Below are positions 9 through 44,725 of a stretch of DNA of 64,000 nt, one piece after another. How positions within the stretch are numbered: position 1 is the first letter of the stretch; the number at the start of each line of letters is the position of its first letter. The stretch is from an uncultured Bacillaceae bacterium (GTDB taxonomy: Bacteria > Bacillota > Bacilli > Bacillales > Bacillaceae_L). The notes beneath the pieces were generated by a model. That model did no database searches and was not told the DNA's origin. It worked only from the letters and a program-made list of their open reading frames with translations. The stretch lies in assembly GCA_947497585.1 (NCBI GenBank), contig CANMHG010000013.1, forward strand, positions 13,568 to 77,567, read 5' to 3'. The position numbers and the translations under genes are program-made.

Positions 9-935
9 TTATTCCCCCTGATTAATGGTTGATATGATTAATGAATATAATTCTTGAGCCGTAAATCGGTTTATTGGTCTACGTATTTGGTAAAGTTGAA
101 TATTATTGACAAAACTTGTCGTAAAAGTAAAATGCCATTCCAATAAGCCAGAAGGTTCTAGAAAGAAATTACGGTAGGTATGATAATACAATACTTGCAA
201 GCGTTCTAGACTATTAATAGGTTGTATATCAATAAGTTCATTTTCCGTCTTTGTTAATTCATACACTCCAGCTAGTGGGAGTTGCTTAGTTGCAAATTGA
301 GAATGAACTGGTATGGCAAACTTTGTTTCTCGCTCAATAATCGGGCGCAAACCGTCGAGCTCGATTCCAAATTCCTCAAGACTATTTTTCCATAGCTTTT
401 GTTGTGGATAAGCTGGTGTTACGACAGGAACATTTCCTTCAGTAAGCATAACTGGTATGACATCATCACTAATAAGCTGGTGGCCCCTATTTAGAAATGC
501 TGTTGCAAGCGTTGACTTTCCTGCACCAGAATCGCCAACAATTGCATATGCCTTTCCATTAACTTCTATTGCACTACCATGTAATGGTAGTATTTTTCGT
601 TGTAATAAGATTAACCCCATACATGTACCAAGTATATATAGCCTTAGCTGGTCTTCATGTACATTCTCCATTGGTGATACTAATATTTCTTTTCCTTCTT
701 TTACTAGGAAAATAGCTACATTTGGTATTTTAAACATTATCGTATCTTTATCCATACAGTAATAATTATTGTTTTCGCCTACTTCAAACCAGTCTTTTGA
801 TAGATTAGAATATTTAATTTCAATATCCACTTGAAATCCTTGTTTTTGAACTGAATAGAGTTCAGGTAGAAGGATTTCACTACTTATATTTAACCCAAAC
901 GCTGTGAAATCTGCACTTAATAATGTATCTTTCAT
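9..935 (-). CDS. Lasso peptide kinase, HPr kinase-like (PadeK type)
   Basis: LHGSA motif and Walker A GDSGAGKST; xxSDD motif; directly downstream of a lasso precursor ending in Ser, as in paeninodin-type clusters. Confidence 0.85.
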   Translation of the reverse strand: MKDTLLSADFTAFGLNISSEILLPELYSVQKQGFQVDIEIKYSNLSKDWFEVGENNNYYCMDKDTIMFKIPNVAIFLVKEGKEILVSPMENVHEDQLRLYILGTCMGLILLQRKILPLHGSAIEVNGKAYAIVGDSGAGKSTLATAFLNRGHQLISDDVIPVMLTEGNVPVVTPAYPQQKLWKNSLEEFGIELDGLRPIIERETKFAIPVHSQFATKQLPLAGVYELTKTENELIDIQPINSLERLQVLYYHTYRNFFLEPSGLLEWHFTFTTSFVNNIQLYQIRRPINRFTAQELYSLIISTINQGE

Positions 936-969
936 ATTTCCCCCTAGTTAAAGAGATAGATATACTTGC

Positions 970-1002
970 AACCCTTATATAAATGATATTTATATAAGGG
1001 TT
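970..1002 (-). promoter_or_regulatory. Perfect 15-bp stem-loop between precursor A1 and kinase (attenuator or mRNA stabiliser)
   Basis: AACCCTTATATAAAT-gat-ATTTATATAAGGGTT. Confidence 0.6.
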
Positions 1003-1022
1003 ATAATAATAGTTAATATTAA

Positions 1023-1196
1023 TTAGCTACCACCTAATAAATCAGGATGTACACATGCTTTATTTATCTTACCGTCGGGGTCAATATTTGGATGCGAACT
1101 CGTGCAATAACTATCTGAAACTGCTTCACCATCACCACCCATTGTCATACCAATATTAAGTACTTCTAAAACTGGCTGTTTCCATGATTTTCTCAT
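1023..1196 (-). CDS. Lasso peptide precursor A1, 57 aa: MRKSWKQPVLEVLNIGMTM / GGDGEAVSDSYCTSSHPNIDPDGKINKACVHPDLLGGS
   Basis: Hand-translated, not in ORF track. WxxPxLEVL leader, Thr at -2, Gly1, Asp9, C-terminal Ser; ATG overlaps the cyclase stop (TAATG). Confidence 0.92.
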   Translation of the reverse strand: MRKSWKQPVLEVLNIGMTMGGDGEAVSDSYCTSSHPNIDPDGKINKACVHPDLLGGS

Positions 1197-3163
1197 TAAA
1201 TCACCCCCTTTCTTCTAGTCTTTCTAATAAATCGATAGAGAACTAGAGCACGTGTTAACACTCTAAAATCATCTTTTAATACGAAATCCTGTTGAGGTAC
1301 CTCACTGTACTTAGGGATTAAATCTTTTATTACTTCTATATTGATTAGATCTTCTATTATAGGATCTCTAATAAGTTGTTGAAGTTCATCAATAAATGCC
1401 TTCCAAGTAGGAGTCATTCGATGTATTAGGTCTGCAGACTGCATACCTCGGCTTTTGTTGTTTAACCTAACCATATCTGGAAGATAGTGTCGGGTTGCTC
1501 GCCTAATTAATGAGCGATCCAACCCTCCTTTTGTATATTGTTCATTAGGTATAGATAAACAAAAACGTATCACTCTAATATCATTAGTTGGGTCTCGGTC
1601 CCATAATGAATATCTTAATGACAATTTCGTTGTTGCATTTCCTGTCTTATTCCAAGAATATAGTTTTGCAAAATGCTCATTTCTACCAATAAATGGTTTT
1701 CGACTAGATTCTTCTGTATGATTAACTCCATAATTTGCTAGCTTTTCATTTATGTTTGTTTTATTTGCTAATAAAGGATGAAGTAAGGATGGGAATCGGT
1801 AATCATCCTGATTATCATTATTAAAAATATTTGTAATAGAAGGTAAACTCCTCTTCACCAAAACTGGAAGAATAGTTGATTTTCCTGTATTGAAATTTTC
1901 ACAATACAGATCTAATTCTCTATATAATCTAAGCCACCTAAGATTCCTAAATAAATCTGTATAGTAATCTAAGTTGCACATGATAGAACCCCAAGAGATT
2001 GAAAAATTCCCTCTTGCTCCATTCAAGAGTACTTTAATTCCACTTTGCTGTGCCTTCTCATTTATCCCCATCAACCAAAACGAGTTTTCAAAAAATTTAT
2101 ATGGCATTTCCATAATATCTAGAAACTCGTCTAACTCTGTTAGTGGATTCCTGCCTTCAAAGTTTAAATAATGGTCAGTAATATTCCCCACTTGATTAAC
2201 GGTTTCCTTAATAAACGGTCGTTCATCAGCAATTAGATATTTTGAAGTCCAATCAACAAAGTCATTTGAGGGTATGTAACTAAAGGTGTATAATCTTTTG
2301 TTCTCTTTACACAGTTCCTTAGAGGCAAAACTAACGACAGATCCTGAATCTAAACCTCCACTTAGCTGCGCACCAACATTCCCAAAGGTACGTAGTCTAT
2401 CCTTAACAGCTCTTTCAAAAACTTCTCTAAAGGCCTCTTCATATTCACTATCTGATTTAAGTTTAATCATCTTGCAATCAACAACATTGCAATATTGAGA
2501 AATTCTTACTTTACCATTCTTAATAGAGATGGAATGTGCCGGAGGTATTTGCTTAATATCTTTATAGACAGTGGAGAGTGTATCGACTGATTCCACCATA
2601 CTAGGTATTGCTAAAAACTCTGCTAACCATTCCTCATTAAGCTCTTTACTAACATAGGGAAGAGAAAACAATGGTTCAATAGTCGTGGAAAAGGCAAATC
2701 GATTGTAGTCATTGAAAAAATATAGAGTTCTTGCTCCAGAAAAATCTCTTGCTCCAAAGAGAGTCCGCTCAATTTCATCCCATATGACGAATACAAAATC
2801 CCCTACCAAATGCTTTGGAGAGTCTTCTCCCCACTTTCTGTATGCTAGTAAAATTAATTTACTATCCGTCATTAGTGCTCTTTTCTCTTTTCGAACATCT
2901 AGCTTTTCAAACAATTCATTACGGTTATCAATAATACAATCTGATGTTATATATAGATTAGTTTCATAGTCATAATACGGTAGTTTTTCATTAACTGATT
3001 CAGGAGTGATCCATTGTGCGTGGCAACCAAAGAACAGATTCCCAGTATGAATCATATGGATATCATCCGCAGGAAACTGCTTGAACACCCTCATTAGTTC
3101 TTTAGTTTGTACAAGGTTAATAGGCTCTTGACTAAAATGAATTAGACCAGCGATTGCACTCAT
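1196..3163 (-). CDS. Lasso peptide cyclase C1 (asparagine synthetase-like, PadeC type)
   Basis: Starts MSAIAG, lacking the AsnB catalytic Cys; LSGGLDSG ATP motif; adjacent to precursor; start reassigned to ATG 3163 after GGAGG. Confidence 0.9.
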   Translation of the reverse strand: MSAIAGLIHFSQEPINLVQTKELMRVFKQFPADDIHMIHTGNLFFGCHAQWITPESVNEKLPYYDYETNLYITSDCIIDNRNELFEKLDVRKEKRALMTDSKLILLAYRKWGEDSPKHLVGDFVFVIWDEIERTLFGARDFSGARTLYFFNDYNRFAFSTTIEPLFSLPYVSKELNEEWLAEFLAIPSMVESVDTLSTVYKDIKQIPPAHSISIKNGKVRISQYCNVVDCKMIKLKSDSEYEEAFREVFERAVKDRLRTFGNVGAQLSGGLDSGSVVSFASKELCKENKRLYTFSYIPSNDFVDWTSKYLIADERPFIKETVNQVGNITDHYLNFEGRNPLTELDEFLDIMEMPYKFFENSFWLMGINEKAQQSGIKVLLNGARGNFSISWGSIMCNLDYYTDLFRNLRWLRLYRELDLYCENFNTGKSTILPVLVKRSLPSITNIFNNDNQDDYRFPSLLHPLLANKTNINEKLANYGVNHTEESSRKPFIGRNEHFAKLYSWNKTGNATTKLSLRYSLWDRDPTNDIRVIRFCLSIPNEQYTKGGLDRSLIRRATRHYLPDMVRLNNKSRGMQSADLIHRMTPTWKAFIDELQQLIRDPIIEDLINIEVIKDLIPKYSEVPQQDFVLKDDFRVLTRALVLYRFIRKTRRKGVI

Positions 3164-3210
3164 GATATCCTCCAACCCAAAGATAAATTAACTATACAGC
3201 ACACCCTTTT

Positions 3211-3226
3211 GTTCATTATAATGAAC
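3211..3226. promoter_or_regulatory. SinR-type operator upstream of cyclase C1
   Basis: Perfect 16-bp palindrome GTTCATTATAATGAAC. Confidence 0.65.
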
Positions 3227-3252
3227 ACTACCTCAAAAAAATTTCACTGTAA

Positions 3253-4476
3253 CTATTGTTCGTTCTTTATAAGTATGGACATTGATGACAGATTCGTAAG
3301 ATTATTTTTTGTTAAATAATCAATTATTGGATTTTTATCAAACGTATGATGTTCCACATTTCTTGAAAATGTTTGAAATAGCTTTACTACTATACTAACG
3401 TTAAAGTCTTCTTTATGATAAGCCAATAATCCTATAGTCTTCATTTTCAATAATGAATAATTGACAACTAGCATACTATACATTTCAAATACATCATTTT
3501 CTTTTGCTACTGGAAATAGATTTTTAAACATGTAGTTCACTAGGTAATTTTCAAAAATATATTCATGTTCTCTTATAAAGGGCTTAAAAAATGTTTCATA
3601 GGTATTCATGTAATCTTCTATACTCGACTCGTCTAGAGTTGGACCAGTAAATTTTATTCCATCTAATGATTCCATTACGCATTCCAAGTATCTTTTATCT
3701 TTAAGACCCGTGAAAATACCTATATCTACAATCTTCCTTAGAATCTGTATCTGATTATTTAAATCTAAGGGCAAATCATGGATCCTGTTAATTATTTCAC
3801 CACTATCAATTAATTGTTCGTAATTTCCTATTATATCAGTTATTTCATTATCTACTAACTTTATTAGGATTTCTTCCATAAACACTCCCAGTATTAGTAA
3901 CCGATCAGTCAAACTATACTTTCTATTTTGTACTATTTTTATTGAAAAATCTCTTAGTTCTAGAAAATAGTAGCGTTCTTTATGGGTACTTTCATATTTA
4001 GATGAATTTATCTTTCTTGATACCAAGTGACGGGTACTGGTTGATTCATTTATTTCTTCAAACTGAATCCCATTTGAATTGAGTAGCACAGTACGAGCTG
4101 CCTCTGGACAAGACACTGTTAATGAACTCTCAAGTCCCCCATTTACAAGGGATGTCACACGAGGGTATGTTGCACATAAATTTGAAAGATAGCCTTCTCC
4201 TTTATCAATATGCACACTACATAATTTTTCCTCAGTAAGTAAAGGACATAACGATTGTGAATTTAGAATAATCTCAGCAAACCATTCTTTGTTTGATTTA
4301 AACTCTATTTTTTTCAGAGATTTCTTTAACTTTTCATTTGATGATACCTGGTATTTCTCATAGGTATCTTGGTCAATTGTAATCCTCCATCCTGAGCAAC
4401 ATGTATCTTCACATGAAGAACCAACACATGAGAATTGTTTTAGATATTGAGGGACTCGAATGGTACGAGTTGACAT
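3253..4476 (-). CDS. FliB-family (flagellin lysine N-methylase-like) Cys-rich Fe-S protein
   Basis: FSCVGSSCEDTCCSGWRITID, CPLL..LCSVH, CATYPR, SCPEA; C-terminal ENYLVNYMF..LFP pattern typical of FliB. Confidence 0.75.
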   Translation of the reverse strand: MSTRTIRVPQYLKQFSCVGSSCEDTCCSGWRITIDQDTYEKYQVSSNEKLKKSLKKIEFKSNKEWFAEIILNSQSLCPLLTEEKLCSVHIDKGEGYLSNLCATYPRVTSLVNGGLESSLTVSCPEAARTVLLNSNGIQFEEINESTSTRHLVSRKINSSKYESTHKERYYFLELRDFSIKIVQNRKYSLTDRLLILGVFMEEILIKLVDNEITDIIGNYEQLIDSGEIINRIHDLPLDLNNQIQILRKIVDIGIFTGLKDKRYLECVMESLDGIKFTGPTLDESSIEDYMNTYETFFKPFIREHEYIFENYLVNYMFKNLFPVAKENDVFEMYSMLVVNYSLLKMKTIGLLAYHKEDFNVSIVVKLFQTFSRNVEHHTFDKNPIIDYLTKNNLTNLSSMSILIKNEQ

Positions 4477-4548
4477 TCATTCTTTCCTTTCTGGGTAAGT
4501 ATTACTTTTACACTTACTCCTTTATTGTAACTTACCTACGGAACGTCT

Positions 4549-4646
4549 TTTCACTATAAAGAACTAGTTTGACAATATCTCGTCAAAATTATTCTTTATT
4601 AAGAACAATATATGTTAAAAATATCATCTTAAAGCTTAGGTGTCAA
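4549..4646 (-). promoter_or_regulatory. sigma-A promoter for the FliB-like gene with two downstream SinR-type boxes
   Basis: TTGACA (4641-4646), 17 nt, TGa-TATTTT (4618-4623); boxes at 4591-4606 and 4549-4564. Confidence 0.65.
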
Positions 4647-4715
4647 TAATAAATGGGCTTTTAAAAAGGAAAAAGGAAAATTATTATTGGGGGTAAGAGG
4701 GACTCTATAGACAAG

Positions 4716-4739
4716 GCCCCTAATTATATTTCTAGGGGC
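4716..4739 (-). terminator. Stem-loop after precursor A2
   Basis: GCCCCTA-N10-TAGGGGC; no strong U-tract. Confidence 0.4.
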
Positions 4740-4767
4740 TAGGTTTAAGAATGCTGGGTATAGAAAC

Positions 4768-4917
4768 TTAACTATCAATATCGTTTCCCCATGTTAAATC
4801 ACTAAATCTTGTGTTAGCAGGGAATGAATCATCGATAAAGTCTCCGGGTTGTGTATTCGCCATCGTCAAGTTTACATCTAGTACCTCAAGAACAGGCTTT
4901 ATCCATTCTTTTTTCAA
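4768..4917 (-). CDS. Lasso peptide precursor A2, 49 aa: MKKEWIKPVLEVLDVNLTM / ANTQPGDFIDDSFPANTRFSDLTWGNDIDS
   Basis: Hand-translated, TTG start after AAAGGAGGTG; paeninodin-like leader WxxPxLEVLDV..TM; C-terminal Ser; immediately after cyclase C2. Confidence 0.92.
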   Translation of the reverse strand: MKKEWIKPVLEVLDVNLTMANTQPGDFIDDSFPANTRFSDLTWGNDIDS

Positions 4918-4932
4918 ACCTATCACCTCCTT

Positions 4933-6876
4933 TCAGGTAAACATTTTATTAATAAATTTATATACTATAAGACTTCTCATTAATATCCTATAATCAGGGT
5001 CGGTCGCGTTTTCTACTCGTGGGCCATTTTCAGCCTTACTAATTGCTACATTTAAGACTTTGGCGTCTATAAATTCAAAAATAAGGTTATCTTTCTTTAG
5101 TTGTTGTATGTCCTTTATATATAATCCCCAATTTGGTTTCATTCGATGAACCCAATCTGCTCCTTGAACTCCACGAATATGTTGGTTTAGTCTGATTTTA
5201 TCTGGCAAATAACTCTGTGTAGCTCTTCGAATAAGAGCACGGTCCATACCATTTTGAACATACTGGTCTTCAGGTAGTGATAAGCAAAAACGAATAACAC
5301 GAATATCATTTGTTGGATCTCGTTTCCAAAGAGAATAACGCAAAGAAAATTTTGTGGAAACTGTATTTGTAGCATTCCAATGAAATACATCTTCAAAGTG
5401 ATTTTTTCTTTGCTTAAAAATATTATCAGTAGAGTACCATCCCGTTTCATCCATACCAAATTTTCTAAGTTTATCGAATACCCTAGTTCGATTTGCAAAT
5501 TCTTGGTTAATTATCTTGGGACTTTTATATTGAGTGGTAAGTGGAAACAACCGATCAATCATAGGAAACGCTTCTCTTACAATAATGGGTAACCTTCTTA
5601 ATCTAGCACCGCCTATATTTTGACTATAATAATTTAATTCTTTAATAAGGCGAAACCACTTCATTTTTTTAAGTAGTATTGCATAATATTCTATTGCCGA
5701 CCCCCAAGAAACACCTAAGTTCCCTCTTCCGCCATTTAAAAGAACTCCAACATTCTCTTTTTGAGCATTCTCAAACATTCCCTTTATCCAAAACGAGTTT
5801 TCAAAAAACTTGTAGGGCATCTCCATTGTTTCTAAAAAATCATCCAATTCCGTGTATGGGCTTTTCCCTTCAAAATCTAAATAATGTGCCTTGACATTTC
5901 CTACATAATTAACTGTTGATTCAATGAAAGGTCGTTCATTAGGCATTAAATATTTTGGGGTGTAATCTATAAAATCAGTGGTTGGAATATAACTAAAAGT
6001 TTGTAATTCTTTTCCTAGTAGTTGTAATTGTTTTGCTGCAAAGCTTACAACTGCTCCAGAATCAAGGCCTCCACTTAATTGAGCCCCCACTTTATGAATA
6101 GTACGTAATCGAGATTTAACAGCTTTACTAAAGACTTCTTGGAAGGCTTCTACATACTCTTCATTAGAATTTAATTTTAATGGTTTGCTGGCATATAAAT
6201 TACAATATCTCTTAATCTTTACCGAATCTCTAGTAATTGAAATAAAATGAGCTGGTGGAATTTGTTTTATATCTTGGTAGGGTGTCATAGAGGAATCAAT
6301 TGTATCTATCACAGTAGTAATTGCTAAATACTCTGCTAACCATTTTTCATTTAATTGTCTCGTTACATCAGGCTGTGTAAGTAACGGTTCTATTGTTGTA
6401 CAAAAAGAAAAGTTCTGATGATTATGACGGTAATAAAGTGTTCTTCCCCCTGAAAAGTCTCTTGCTGCAAATATAGAGTGTGCCCTTTCGTCCCAAATGA
6501 CATATGCAAAGTCACCAACTAGATATTTTGGTGATTCCTCACCCCACTTTTCGTAGCCTCGCAAAATTAACTGACTGTCAGGTATCGATTTCTCTAGTAT
6601 CGGATCGATCTTCAGTAGACCAAATAGTTCTTCACGATTATCAATAATTGCATCAGATACTATTGCGAGCTTTCTCTCGTAATCATAGAAAGGGAGGCTT
6701 TCACCGATTGATTCAGGAGTAATCCATTGCATATGACAACCTAAGAAGACTGTATTATTATTCCACGTTTGAATGTCATCGGCTGGATATCTTTTTAAGG
6801 ACTCCATTAATCTAGTACCATTTTCTATTCGAATAGGTTGCTTATTTAGATGTATAATTCCTGTTATTGCACTCAT
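4933..6876 (-). CDS. Lasso peptide cyclase C2 (asparagine synthetase-like, PadeC type)
   Basis: MSAITG start without catalytic Cys; LSGGLDSG; collinear with C1 (MPYKFFENSFW, RDPTNDIRVIRFCLS shared). Confidence 0.9.
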   Translation of the reverse strand: MSAITGIIHLNKQPIRIENGTRLMESLKRYPADDIQTWNNNTVFLGCHMQWITPESIGESLPFYDYERKLAIVSDAIIDNREELFGLLKIDPILEKSIPDSQLILRGYEKWGEESPKYLVGDFAYVIWDERAHSIFAARDFSGGRTLYYRHNHQNFSFCTTIEPLLTQPDVTRQLNEKWLAEYLAITTVIDTIDSSMTPYQDIKQIPPAHFISITRDSVKIKRYCNLYASKPLKLNSNEEYVEAFQEVFSKAVKSRLRTIHKVGAQLSGGLDSGAVVSFAAKQLQLLGKELQTFSYIPTTDFIDYTPKYLMPNERPFIESTVNYVGNVKAHYLDFEGKSPYTELDDFLETMEMPYKFFENSFWIKGMFENAQKENVGVLLNGGRGNLGVSWGSAIEYYAILLKKMKWFRLIKELNYYSQNIGGARLRRLPIIVREAFPMIDRLFPLTTQYKSPKIINQEFANRTRVFDKLRKFGMDETGWYSTDNIFKQRKNHFEDVFHWNATNTVSTKFSLRYSLWKRDPTNDIRVIRFCLSLPEDQYVQNGMDRALIRRATQSYLPDKIRLNQHIRGVQGADWVHRMKPNWGLYIKDIQQLKKDNLIFEFIDAKVLNVAISKAENGPRVENATDPDYRILMRSLIVYKFINKMFT

Positions 6877-6904
6877 AATTTTTTCTCCCTGACTAACTTA
6901 TGAT

Positions 6905-7044
6905 TTTCACTATAAAGAACAATAGTTAATTTAAACACAAGGATAATTTATAAATTTCAAGTTAATTATCTTTAGTTCCAATAATTTTGTTCTTTATAAG
7001 GAACATCTTCATTTAAAGTTAACACTTTTTCTGAACAGTGTCAA
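6905..7044 (-). promoter_or_regulatory. sigma-A promoter for cyclase C2 with two downstream SinR-type boxes
   Basis: TTGACA (7039-7044), 17 nt, TGt-TAACTT (7016-7021); boxes at 6989-7004 and 6905-6920. Confidence 0.65.
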
Positions 7045-7120
7045 TATTTCAGTTATTAGGAATAGGCCAAAAGGCGAATCAGAAGAAGCTATATTTTTGA
7101 TGGTTATTGGAGAATATAAT

Positions 7121-7146
7121 AGACACTCAAACTAAGATGAGTGTCT
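7121..7146 (-). terminator. Probable terminator at the end of the EPS locus
   Basis: AGACACTCA-N8-TGAGTGTCT. Confidence 0.5.
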
Positions 7147-7180
7147 AAATACCTAATAACAAATTTTATTAACTATTAAT

Positions 7181-8260
7181 TTATAAAACGATATGGTCGA
7201 GGGTTCCTCTTAGAACTTCATTCTCTGTAGTCAATACCGGTTCTCTATCCATATCCCTAATCCATAGTAACCCATCCGGAAGAGGATTAAACTTCGTATC
7301 AAGCGCAGGAAACTTATTGTACAGAATAATATCTTTATAGATCTCAGGCATATTTAATCCTGCTTCTGTAAAGAAATAACATGTCGTAAAAAAGCGCATA
7401 TTTATCTCAGTAGGGTTAGGGAAATCATTTCTGTCATACGTCATATCCACACCGTATACTCCATGAGGCTTCTTATCAATCGCATATATTGTTTCCATAG
7501 CTACTTTGTTCACTGTTTCATCTGAGTAAGTCTCACCTACCCCAGTTATTCCAGTCACACCTGATAGTGTCCGATTACCAAATCCCCAGGACTTTCTTCT
7601 TCTAGTTTGGGCTACAACTAGCTCGCCTTCATACCAAATAGATAACCAAGTAACCGTCTTATCAGACTGGAGTAACTCTGAAGCAGTAAAACTTCCCCAA
7701 CCGTTATAGATATCTATCCAGTTTTGAGCAAACTCATAATCATTTGTAGGTAGTGCTCCTCTTCCACCAGCACCTACTGTAGATCTTAACCAGATTTTCC
7801 CCTCTTCATCTCCTAGATCTTGAAAAGCTTGTTTTAATTCATGTTTATCTCGAATAGGCAGTGTTTTTGGCACCTTAATACCTGTAGCTTCCCAAACCTT
7901 ATAGGATTTATATTTATCTGTACATGCTTCAATCACATCATGATCTGGCATAAATAACTTTGTACCTGTAGCTGTGATTTCATCTCGAAATCTTGAGGCT
8001 TCGAGTATTTCTCTATCATTCATAAAAACAGCTAAACTAGGTTTATCATTATTCATAATACCCAGTAATTCTTTTTTATAATCTTTTCCGAATGCATATT
8101 CATATGGGATGTGTCGCTTAGTTTCAGCCTTCGAAGTATACAAATTATAAGGATTCCTTGATAACCCTATTACTTCGTTCCTAATTTCCGCCTTATTCCA
8201 CGATTTTATAACATTCTCTGCTGGCGAAACCCCGACATCAGTTATTAGTATTTTCTCCAT
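7181..8260 (-). CDS. ATP-grasp (carboxylate-amine ligase-like) protein
   Basis: DKYKSY..W, IKVPKT, GAGGRG loop, GVDMT...TEINMRF pattern. Confidence 0.75.
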   Translation of the reverse strand: MEKILITDVGVSPAENVIKSWNKAEIRNEVIGLSRNPYNLYTSKAETKRHIPYEYAFGKDYKKELLGIMNNDKPSLAVFMNDREILEASRFRDEITATGTKLFMPDHDVIEACTDKYKSYKVWEATGIKVPKTLPIRDKHELKQAFQDLGDEEGKIWLRSTVGAGGRGALPTNDYEFAQNWIDIYNGWGSFTASELLQSDKTVTWLSIWYEGELVVAQTRRRKSWGFGNRTLSGVTGITGVGETYSDETVNKVAMETIYAIDKKPHGVYGVDMTYDRNDFPNPTEINMRFFTTCYFFTEAGLNMPEIYKDIILYNKFPALDTKFNPLPDGLLWIRDMDREPVLTTENEVLRGTLDHIVL

Positions 8261-9800: not shown

Positions 9801-9816
9801 GTTCTTTATAAAGAAC
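9801..9816. promoter_or_regulatory. SinR-type operator
   Basis: Perfect palindrome GTTCTTTATAAAGAAC upstream of the phosphatase. Confidence 0.65.
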
Positions 9817-11909: not shown

Positions 11910-11925
11910 ATTCATTATAACGAAC
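11910..11925. promoter_or_regulatory. Degenerate SinR-type operator
   Basis: ATTCATTATAACGAAC in a short intergenic gap. Confidence 0.45.
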
Positions 11926-19580: not shown

Positions 19581-19663
19581 GTTCTTTATAATGAACAAAA
19601 AAGTTGAAAAAAATTCGATTATAAATTTAAAACCATTATAATTCTTTATTAAGAACAAAGCAA
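19581..19663 (-). promoter_or_regulatory. Internal sigma-A promoter with a SinR-type box filling the spacer, plus a second box
   Basis: TTGCTT (19658-19663), 17 nt, TATAAT (19635-19640); boxes at 19641-19656 and 19581-19596. Confidence 0.7.
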
Positions 19664-43970: not shown

Positions 43971-44139
43971 TTTCTCAATAAAGAACACTATAGTAAAAAT
44001 ATAACCAACATATGTCTGGTTTAGTTTGATTTATTCTTTTTAAAGAACATTTCCTGTGAAAAAATACTTTTTTACTTACTTTTGTTCAGTTTGGAAAACT
44101 TATTACCCTCAGTTTAGTTCTTTATACAGAACAAGTCAA
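43971..44139 (-). promoter_or_regulatory. Main EPS sigma-A promoter with three SinR-type boxes
   Basis: TTGACT (44134-44139), 17 nt, TAAACT (44111-44116) with box 44117-44132 in the spacer; further boxes at 44033-44048 and 43971-43986. Confidence 0.7.
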
Positions 44140-44557: not shown

Positions 44558-44608
44558 GTTCTTTATAAAGAATAAAATTACTATAACACGGATTGTCAGT
44601 TTGAACAA
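44558..44608 (-). promoter_or_regulatory. Promoter of the XRE gene with a SinR-type box over +1
   Basis: TTGTTC (44603-44608), 17 nt, TGt-TATAGT (44580-44585); box 44558-44573. Confidence 0.55.
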
Positions 44609-44626
44609 TATTATTTTCTAATATAC

Positions 44627-44725
44627 GTTCACTAAAAAGAACGATTGGTTTTTTATAGTAATTTAGATATATTTATCATCTTTATTAAAATAGTTCTTTA
44701 AAAAGAACATATTATTCTGTATAAT
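44627..44725 (+). promoter_or_regulatory. Two SinR-type boxes and the probable sinR promoter
   Basis: Boxes at 44627-44642 and 44693-44708; TATAAT at 44720-44725 with the -35 position inside the second box. Confidence 0.55.

Follow-up and report, generated by a model that had tools for sequence, protein, structure and literature searches.

A FliB-type lysine methylase homologue heading a paeninodin-type lasso peptide operon and its association with lysine-pair core peptides

The flagellin lysine methylase FliB of Salmonella carries eight conserved cysteines and an oxygen-sensitive [4Fe-4S] cluster, held by a CX4CX3CC motif (C17, C22, C26, C27), that is essential for the S-adenosylmethionine (SAM)-dependent methylation of flagellin lysines (PMC8598068). 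The enzyme needs the cluster in its reduced form and yields methylthioadenosine (MTA) besides S-adenosylhomocysteine (SAH); a radical-assisted mechanism was proposed by the authors, and flagellin monomers are modified prior to export (PMC8598068). The paeninodin-type lasso peptide pathways, with their steps of leader recognition, leader cleavage, cyclisation, phosphorylation and export, were summarised in a 2022 review of lasso modifications, where the methylations listed are O-methylations only and lysine is never mentioned (PMC9266682). Here we describe a FliB-like gene that lies inside a lasso peptide cluster of an uncultured Bacillaceae bacterium, in a stretch of 64,000 nucleotides (the window) that corresponds to positions 13568-77567 of contig C13 in a 4.17-Mb assembly. 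Its conserved gene order, its phylogeny and the nature of the linked precursors argue that a FliB-type enzyme was recruited from a flagellar late-gene locus into a paeninodin-type lasso pathway, where it most likely N-methylates a lysine pair of the precursor A1, a conclusion that we hold with fair but far from full confidence.

The cluster comprises two modules on the minus strand. Module 2 consists of a lasso cyclase gene and a precursor gene (C2-A2) and module 1 runs C1-A1-kinase-B1-B2-nucleotidyltransferase-ATP-binding cassette (ABC) exporter, with the FliB-like gene between them. A reading of the window made earlier from the sequence alone had noticed this Cys-rich open reading frame (ORF) between A2 and C1 and on their strand, and a profile search bears it out: the product scores 306.5 bits with the NCBIfam model NF038110 (Lys_methyl_FliB), whose cut-off is 85, and aligns with positions 1-367 of the 373 in the model (a search of the whole genome gave 306.3 bits); it matches the Pfam CxxCxxCC family weakly. 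Cysteines occur at positions 17, 22, 26, 27, 77, 86, 101, 123 and 266. The first four form the motif C17-VGSS-C22-EDT-C26-C27, of the CX4CX3CC type, and all but the last are the eight conserved cysteines of the FliB family, whose columns show no variation among 24 or among 120 aligned homologues. The AlphaFold model of the protein (pLDDT 93.9, pTM 0.93) found no fold relative among solved PDB structures with Foldseek (best E-value 0.55). A sequence-profile match to a solved chain (best E = 0.00048) was discarded; the chain, of 824 residues, is unrelated and is matched over only about 75 of them, and no matched stretch passes alone. Judged by its cofactor-binding residues and its full-length family match, the protein is an intact and probably active FliB-family enzyme.

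The co-occurrence of FliB homologues with lasso clusters, proposed earlier as a check, was followed through 80 FliB loci, one genome per species, whose flanks were searched with the lasso proteins of the window and with the flagellar proteins of the genome studied here. In the three closest loci (52, 48 and 43% identity, from a Fredinandcohnia sp., Neobacillus cucumis and Anaerobacillus) FliB stands directly before a lasso cyclase gene, and kinase, B1, B2, nucleotidyltransferase and exporter genes come after the cyclase. Another 43 of the 80 loci have flagellar genes nearby, mostly with FliB between hag and flaG/fliD, and the homologue of Paenibacillus P1XP2 (45% identity) lies in a flagellar locus. 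Further close homologues in the lasso arrangement were found in Evansella clarkii, Paenibacillus sp. sgz302251, Fredinandcohnia humi and a contig from Logan. Apart from the 43% of the Anaerobacillus locus, the lasso-linked homologues are 46-52% identical to the window protein, and homologues that lie between hag and flaG/fliD are at 45% or less. In total, FliB opens operons of the order FliB-C-A-K-B1 (B2, N), D, where K, N and D denote kinase, nucleotidyltransferase and exporter, in nine genomes, which represent six named genera and include the Logan metagenome contig, with unrelated flanking genes. These are the present genome, Fredinandcohnia sp. (locus L005), F. humi (L184), N. cucumis (L006), an Anaerobacillus metagenome-assembled genome (L010), genome G174 (L127), E. 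clarkii (L085), Paenibacillus sp. (L086) and the Logan contig (L087).

Among 401 evenly sampled genomes of the order, with at most two cyclase candidates scored per genome, 91 held lasso cyclases (about 113 in all) and 15 held FliB (17 copies); in four cases, that of G174 among them, the FliB copy stands immediately upstream of a cyclase. Where a cluster has a single module (L006, L085, L086, L087 and L127), FliB accompanies it, and in twin clusters it is always ahead of the module with a lysine pair in its core and never ahead of the A2 module. Two Fredinandcohnia genomes carry extra genes between A2 and the FliB-like gene, which encode in one case a 332-aa protein along with a membrane protein of 401 aa (L005:6962-9311) and in the other a metallophosphoesterase (L184:6797-7759), which ties FliB to the downstream module and not to A2.

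The FliB phylogeny had also been named as a check, since placement with flagellin-linked FliB would have favoured a flagellar role. In a maximum-likelihood tree of 84 FliB proteins, including the eight lasso-linked copies then in hand, these eight and one solitary copy (L020) form a clade of their own (SH-aLRT, the Shimodaira-Hasegawa-like approximate likelihood ratio test, 99), which is nested among those FliBs of Paenibacillaceae and Bacillaceae that are linked to flagellin. A single change of the label 'lasso' suffices on the tree, and none of 500 shuffles did as well, which points to one recruitment from a flagellar ancestor. The conserved substitutions specific to the clade include R56K, K68E, K247R, S260D and A351M. 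In each of eight genomes checked the lasso-linked copy is the sole FliB and flagellin is encoded elsewhere, so the clade did not arise by addition of a paralogue to a flagellar copy that was kept. Neofunctionalisation after duplication was considered and rejected, as no second, flagellin-linked paralogue occurs in the lasso-linked genomes. NF038110 is an equivalog-level model named flagellin lysine-N-methylase, and through it the window protein and its homologues P0002, P0003, P0005 and P0007 bear the public name 'flagellin lysine-N-methylase'; for the lasso-linked clade the substrate part of this name is probably wrong.

In the genome studied here the only FliB copy is that on C13, and a flgK-flgL-fliW-hag-flaG-fliD-fliS locus without FliB is present on contig C3, where the flagellin gene occupies 247240-248358. 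The sequence-only reading had stated that the window contains no flagellar genes; this stands for the flagellin family, which matches on C3 only and not in the window, where other flagellar families were not searched. Two genomes of the same genus (G167 and G296) encode lasso cyclases and flagellin and have neither FliB nor a lysine-pair core. A seemingly broken flagellin gene in the FliB-lasso genome of Fredinandcohnia sp. G385 was dropped as an argument when the split family match proved to reflect a group I intron. This intron (RF00028; 55.8 bits, gathering score 50) interrupts a flagellin gene downstream of fliW-csrA after about codon 75 (L187:2203-2453, contig C21), with the exons in ORFs 2423-2650 and 1629-2180, and the gene is probably functional.

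Some FliB homologues have neither kind of neighbour. For those without flagellar neighbours at L014, L020, L055, L056, L063, L072 and L076, no genes for peptides made by ribosomes and modified after translation (RiPPs) were recognised from ORF listings, and the context of L063 resembles a glycosylation island. Clades of the family with no flagellar gene within 10 kb, as judged by tblastn with the flagellar proteins of the genome studied here, occur in Clostridium (L052-L055, L065, L077, L084), Acidobacteriota (L061-L083) and Cohnella (L063, L070). The family may occur in yet other settings not connected with flagellin, or flagellar genes may be present there but too divergent to detect.

An indication of the substrate comes from the core peptides, for which precursors were assigned to cyclases by leader hidden Markov model and proximity. 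The lysines that had been pointed out earlier in the A1 core, and their absence from the A2 core, are read directly from the translations, and every FliB-linked core proved to have a close lysine pair. Linked cores of class I have the form GG(D/A)G..DSYCT....(D/N)GKINKAC...S (own A1, L005, L184, L010, L085), those of class II the form xGKS(A/S)KxxDG... (L006, L086, L087), and the core of G174 (AGPLAKGKPD...) is of a third type. The three types are mutually unrelated and have the close lysine pair as their one common feature. A pair with a spacing of one or two residues is found in nine of nine linked cores, and G-K-x-x-K in eight of the nine; among 103 FliB-less cores of the same order such a pair occurs in 10 and KxxK in 3. 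For the eight linked cores then in hand against the 103, Fisher's exact test gave raw p values of 1e-7 for the pair and 3e-8 for KxxK. Second-module precursors of twin clusters, which do not follow FliB, have no lysine (own, L005, L010) or a single one (L184).

This association does not follow the cyclase lineage. In a cyclase tree with 115 members, those linked to FliB occupy at least three places, which rules out co-inheritance of FliB with one cyclase lineage, and the tree offers three independent contrasts between presence and absence of FliB, in all three of which the lysine pair accompanies FliB. The contrast that tells most is the one within the class-I cyclase clade, where 18 FliB-less cores of the form ...ETHxG(Q/R)SNASC... 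can be compared with five linked cores of the form ...DGKINKAC..., and lysines thus replace Q/R and N/A at the positions of K24 and K27. If the usual Thr(-2) cleavage rule holds for the linked core of G174, AGPLAKGKPDWTEEGGDES (L127:853-984), its first acidic residue is residue 10, so that the ring would have 10 residues unless cleavage falls one residue further on.

It had been proposed that the promoter of the FliB-like gene shares the layout of the C2 promoter, TTGACA, 17 nt and an extended -10, and both are confirmed, that of the FliB-like gene as the top-ranked minus-strand promoter-like site within 900-7300. The C2 site has a weak -10 hexamer (3/6 matches) and was not called by the promoter scanner. 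A SinR-type box at exactly 11 nt past the -10 was likewise found at both promoters (4606-4591 and 7004-6989), and the second box noted earlier is an exact copy at the two sites; when up to two mismatches are allowed, TTTCACTATAAAGAAC gives 5 matches against 0.27 expected. In the window, where 1.08 matches would be expected, the palindrome RTTCNTTAWAANGAAY has 25, counted by strand, at about 15 sites. The sites include both lasso promoters, the FliB-C1 spacer and the spacer of a divergent SinR/XRE gene pair (44558-44708). Others lie ahead of several eps-like genes, at 9801-9816 (perfect, GTTCTTTATAAAGAAC), 11910-11925, 19581-19596, 19641-19656 and, beginning at 44033 and 44117, within 44033-44132. 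This distribution suggests that one regulon takes in both the lasso cluster and the polysaccharide genes over about 35 kb.

At seven other loci (L005, L006, L010, L085, L086, L087 and L127), from Fredinandcohnia, Neobacillus, Anaerobacillus, Evansella and Paenibacillus together with two further loci, the same palindrome recurs just past the promoter that precedes the FliB-like gene. The earlier proposal of SinR-type co-regulation gains support from this conservation across genera, and a SinR-type repressor probably controls the FliB-lasso operon. Three SinR/XRE-type proteins are encoded in the window, any of which could bind the putative operators, and a sinR homologue with HTH_3 and SinI domains lies about 1.2 kb past the exporter gene (L004 8210-8557). 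In Bacillus subtilis, SinR-repressed genes switch on when SinR-SlrR turns hag off. By this analogy, an enzyme under SinR repression would appear at times when flagellin synthesis is shut off, which argues against flagellin as its substrate, and the shared operators suggest that the lasso peptides are made together with the biofilm matrix.

The features of the cluster are collected in Table 1. Read 5' to 3' on the minus strand, the order is C2, A2, hairpin, promoter, FliB-like gene, a 77-nt spacer, C1, A1 and kinase, and no terminator was predicted in the 77-nt spacer. The operon runs on to the left of the window with genes for B1 (PqqD), B2 (transglutaminase-like), an NTP_transf_5 protein and the ABC exporter. 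The gene set is that of a paeninodin-type pathway, with an Asn-synthetase-like cyclase, split B1/B2, HPrK-like kinase and ABC exporter. Both precursors exceed the cut-off of 27 of the paeninodin-family (PadeA) precursor model NF033524, both leaders end in ..TM with Thr at -2, and both cores end in S. The scores of C1 and C2 are under the 525-bit cut-off of NF033535, which they match mainly over the N-terminal 410 positions.

Table 1. Coordinates of the lasso cluster and its regulatory elements in the window
Feature	Position	Strand	Remarks
FliB-family [4Fe-4S]/SAM lysine N-methylase homologue	3253..4476	minus	407 aa; proposed lasso-peptide lysine methylase, opens module-1 operon
Promoter of FliB-like gene	4618..4646	minus	-35 TTGACA 4646-4641, 17-nt spacer, extended -10 TG-a-TATTTT 4623-4618; 10/12 matches, TG present
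SinR-type 16-bp palindrome GTTCTTAATAAAGAAT	4591..4606		begins 11 nt past FliB -10
Second box GTTCTTTATAGTGAAA (minus strand; TTTCACTATAAAGAAC) at FliB promoter	4549..4564	minus	exact copy of box before C2
Perfect SinR-type palindrome GTTCATTATAATGAAC	3211..3226		in 77-nt FliB-C1 spacer
Lasso cyclase C1 (Asn-synthetase-like)	1196..3175	minus	directly downstream of FliB-like gene; NF033535 383.9 bits; Asn_synthase and GATase_7 domains
Precursor A1, core GGDGEAVSDSYCTSSHPNIDPDGKINKACVHPDLLGGS	1023..1196	minus	NF033524 41.7 bits; K24 and K27 are proposed methylation sites
HPr-kinase-like lasso Ser kinase (PadeK type)	9..935	minus	Hpr_kinase_C 40 bits
C2 promoter	6989..7044	minus	TTGACA 7044-7039, 17 nt, TG-t-TAACTT 7021-7016, 11 nt, palindrome GTTCCTTATAAAGAAC 7004-6989
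Second box GTTCTTTATAGTGAAA before C2	6905..6920	minus	exact copy
Lasso cyclase C2	4933..6876	minus	NF033535 395 bits
Precursor A2, core ANTQPGDFIDDSFPANTRFSDLTWGNDIDS	4768..4926	minus	NF033524 41.4 bits; core without Lys; no FliB in front
Terminator-like hairpin 3' of A2	4716..4739	minus	parts module 2 from FliB promoter

Twin-module lasso clusters without FliB are common in the order (L088, L094, L108, L115, L129, L143, L144 and others) and pair an ANxxxGD...DLTWS-type or ASTVxGPYTDEAYVPG-type core with a NGPGNANADCFD...SNASC-type core. In the lineage of the window the FliB gene is inserted between the twin modules, and the cyclase starts are 3.7 kb apart as against about 2.5 kb otherwise. 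A different arrangement occurs in G372, where two tandem, near-identical precursor genes (LGEDGD(Y/F)TDAAFPENTPKKDLTFS; L174:557-706 and 814-960) lie downstream of a single cyclase gene.

These data are consistent with the following pathway. The FliB-type enzyme would be made from its own sigma-A-type promoter as the product of the first gene of FliB-C1-A1-K-B1-B2-N-D and would bind a [4Fe-4S] cluster through C17, C22, C26 and C27. It would then methylate, with SAM, the epsilon-amines of K24 and K27 in the GKINKAC segment of A1, either before or after leader removal by B1/B2 and ring closure by C1. B1 is expected to recognise the leader and B2 to cleave it, C1 would close the ring between G1 and D9, and the kinase would phosphorylate the C-terminal Ser, with a PsmN-like nucleotidyltransferase that may extend this phosphate, before the product is exported by the ABC transporter. 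Repression of the operon by a SinR-type repressor would couple it to matrix production. Family membership, cofactor-binding residues, conserved synteny, a lasso clade of single origin and the lysine-pair association are observed; the substrate, lysine methylation as the chemistry, its timing and SinR as the repressor are inferred. What the methylation might serve can only be guessed at: it could confer resistance to proteases, change the charge or shield the amines while Asp is activated.

The tailoring role that the sequence-only reading had offered as one of two options is thus the better supported by synteny, tree and lysine-pair association, and several points weigh against it. The chemistry of FliB is incompletely understood, a radical-type mechanism having been proposed (PMC8598068), and the reaction on the peptide could differ from N-methylation. 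The solitary clade member L020 has no lasso genes within 10 kb. At least one lysine is present in 57 of the 103 FliB-less paeninodin-type cores, so that 'any Lys in core' fails as a FliB signature and only the close pair discriminates, and ten of the 103 have close pairs as well. The phylogenetically independent contrasts number just three, for which the sign test cannot fall below p = 0.25. Moreover, a very Lys-rich short core, SGKGKRPGKKNDGVEDCS (L168:866-1003), occurs in a lasso cluster of a genome without FliB (G359) and is a counter-example to a strict rule linking lysine pair and FliB. Finally, the presence of flagellin with only one FliB per genome leaves room for a flagellin role, disfavoured as it is.

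That role, the second of the earlier options, would make the gene a flagellin lysine methylase still, incidentally located in a lasso cluster and perhaps tying flagellin methylation to the SinR switch between motility and biofilm. It draws on the high score with an equivalog model, on the sole FliB being accompanied by flagellin here and in the other lasso-linked genomes, and on the nesting of the clade in flagellin-linked FliBs, but a gene placed there by chance would not be expected to stay first in the operon in nine genomes that span several genera and have unrelated flanks. The distinct clade with its own substitutions, the lysine-pair association, which this explanation leaves without a cause, and the relatives of the same genus that retain flagellin without any FliB all speak against it. 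So does timing, since Salmonella FliB acts on monomers before their export (PMC8598068), while the SinR-repressed enzyme would, on the Bacillus subtilis analogy, be made with flagellin off. We consider the flagellin role improbable.

No likelier, in our estimate, is a lasso tailoring enzyme with another chemistry, C-methylation or a radical-type reaction, for which the lysine pair would be a recognition element or a coincidence. The need of Salmonella FliB for a reduced [4Fe-4S] cluster, its release of MTA plus SAH and the radical-assisted proposal (PMC8598068) leave some weight on this side, as does the lack of a solved fold relative or a meaningful sequence match, whereby the chemistry of the FliB-like protein is not readable from structure. 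Nevertheless, epsilon-N-methylation of lysine is the sole activity demonstrated for the family, and the lysine pair is what three otherwise unrelated types of linked core have in common. That the enzyme methylates another cellular protein, such as the producer's own copy of the lasso target for self-immunity, or has no function in the pathway, is very unlikely, for although an immunity gene would show equally conserved linkage, the clusters already have an ABC exporter, the usual device for immunity and export, and this explanation has no supported target and does not predict lysine pairs in the cores.

If N-methylation of the A1 lysine pair is correct, an enzyme family and a peptide class that are both known already are most likely combined here for a modification, N-methyl-lysine, not described before. 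A literature search yielded no paper linking FliB, lysine-N-methylase or PF03692 with lasso peptides or RiPPs, and a paper on Neobacillus lasso clusters leaves the FliB-type gene unmentioned. Taken as a whole, the reading would comprise the first Fe-S lysine methylase acting on a ribosomal peptide, the first epsilon-N-methyl-lysine lasso peptides, a portable motif-directed module that moved among at least three unrelated core types, each of which gained a lysine pair, and a cluster switched on with biofilm matrix genes via SinR; for this full combination we judge the prospects evenly balanced. FliB itself is poorly understood, with a [4Fe-4S] cluster for an apparently simple N-methylation, no solved structure and a large, awkward protein as its only known substrate, and with a FliB clade that works on a peptide about 38 residues long, a small, tractable substrate would become available for studies of its mechanism. 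Lysine N-methylation would join the modifications of lasso peptides, and a FliB gene ahead of a cyclase together with a GKxxK core would serve as a mining rule. The conserved SinR-type operators, in turn, hint at the biological role of these lasso peptides, as products made with the biofilm matrix.

Compared with the FliB of Salmonella enterica (NF038110; PMC8598068, PMC7181671), the window protein belongs to the same family over its full length, has the CX4CX3CC motif at identical residue numbers and the eight conserved cysteines, and presumably shares the chemistry of SAM-dependent methyl transfer onto lysine epsilon-amines. Its gene differs in that it adjoins no flagellin or flagellar gene and opens a lasso operon, in belonging to a separate clade, and in a promoter that bears SinR-type operators and is not part of a flagellar late operon, and in place of the surface domains of a folded flagellin, its proposed substrate is a lysine-pair peptide some 38 residues long. 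The flagellin-linked FliBs of Bacillota (Paenibacillus sp. P1XP2 'FliU', L186; Brevibacillus, Lysinibacillus) are 37-45% identical and represent the source group of the lasso-linked clade, but their genes sit between hag and flaG/fliD/fliS, whereas the window gene and its eight relatives sit before a lasso cyclase gene. With the B. subtilis SinR operators, of consensus GTTCTYT (PMC3163267), the likeness extends to RTTCNTTAWAANGAAY, which consists of two inverted GTTCTYT-like half-sites, to the sites at promoters of eps-like operons and to the SinR-like genes (HTH_3 plus SinI domain) that flank the region.

Among known lasso methyltransferases, LasF/StspM (C-terminal O-methyltransferases) and TceM/LihM (Asp methyltransferases of the protein isoaspartyl methyltransferase, PIMT, type) are likewise SAM-dependent tailoring enzymes encoded within lasso clusters (PMC9266682). 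They are Rossmann-fold enzymes that O-methylate carboxylates, whereas the window protein is an Fe-S enzyme of unrelated fold from a family that methylates amines. The paeninodin and pseudomycoidin clusters (padeCAKB1B2D; psm with PsmK/PsmN; PMC9266682, PMC6993621) resemble the present one in their NF033524 precursors, split B1/B2, HPrK-like kinase for the C-terminal Ser, NTP_transf_5 protein and ABC exporter. They lack a FliB-type gene, and their known tailoring consists of phosphorylation with or without glycosylation, whereas the window cluster adds a FliB-type gene, a lysine-pair core and a second cyclase-precursor module.

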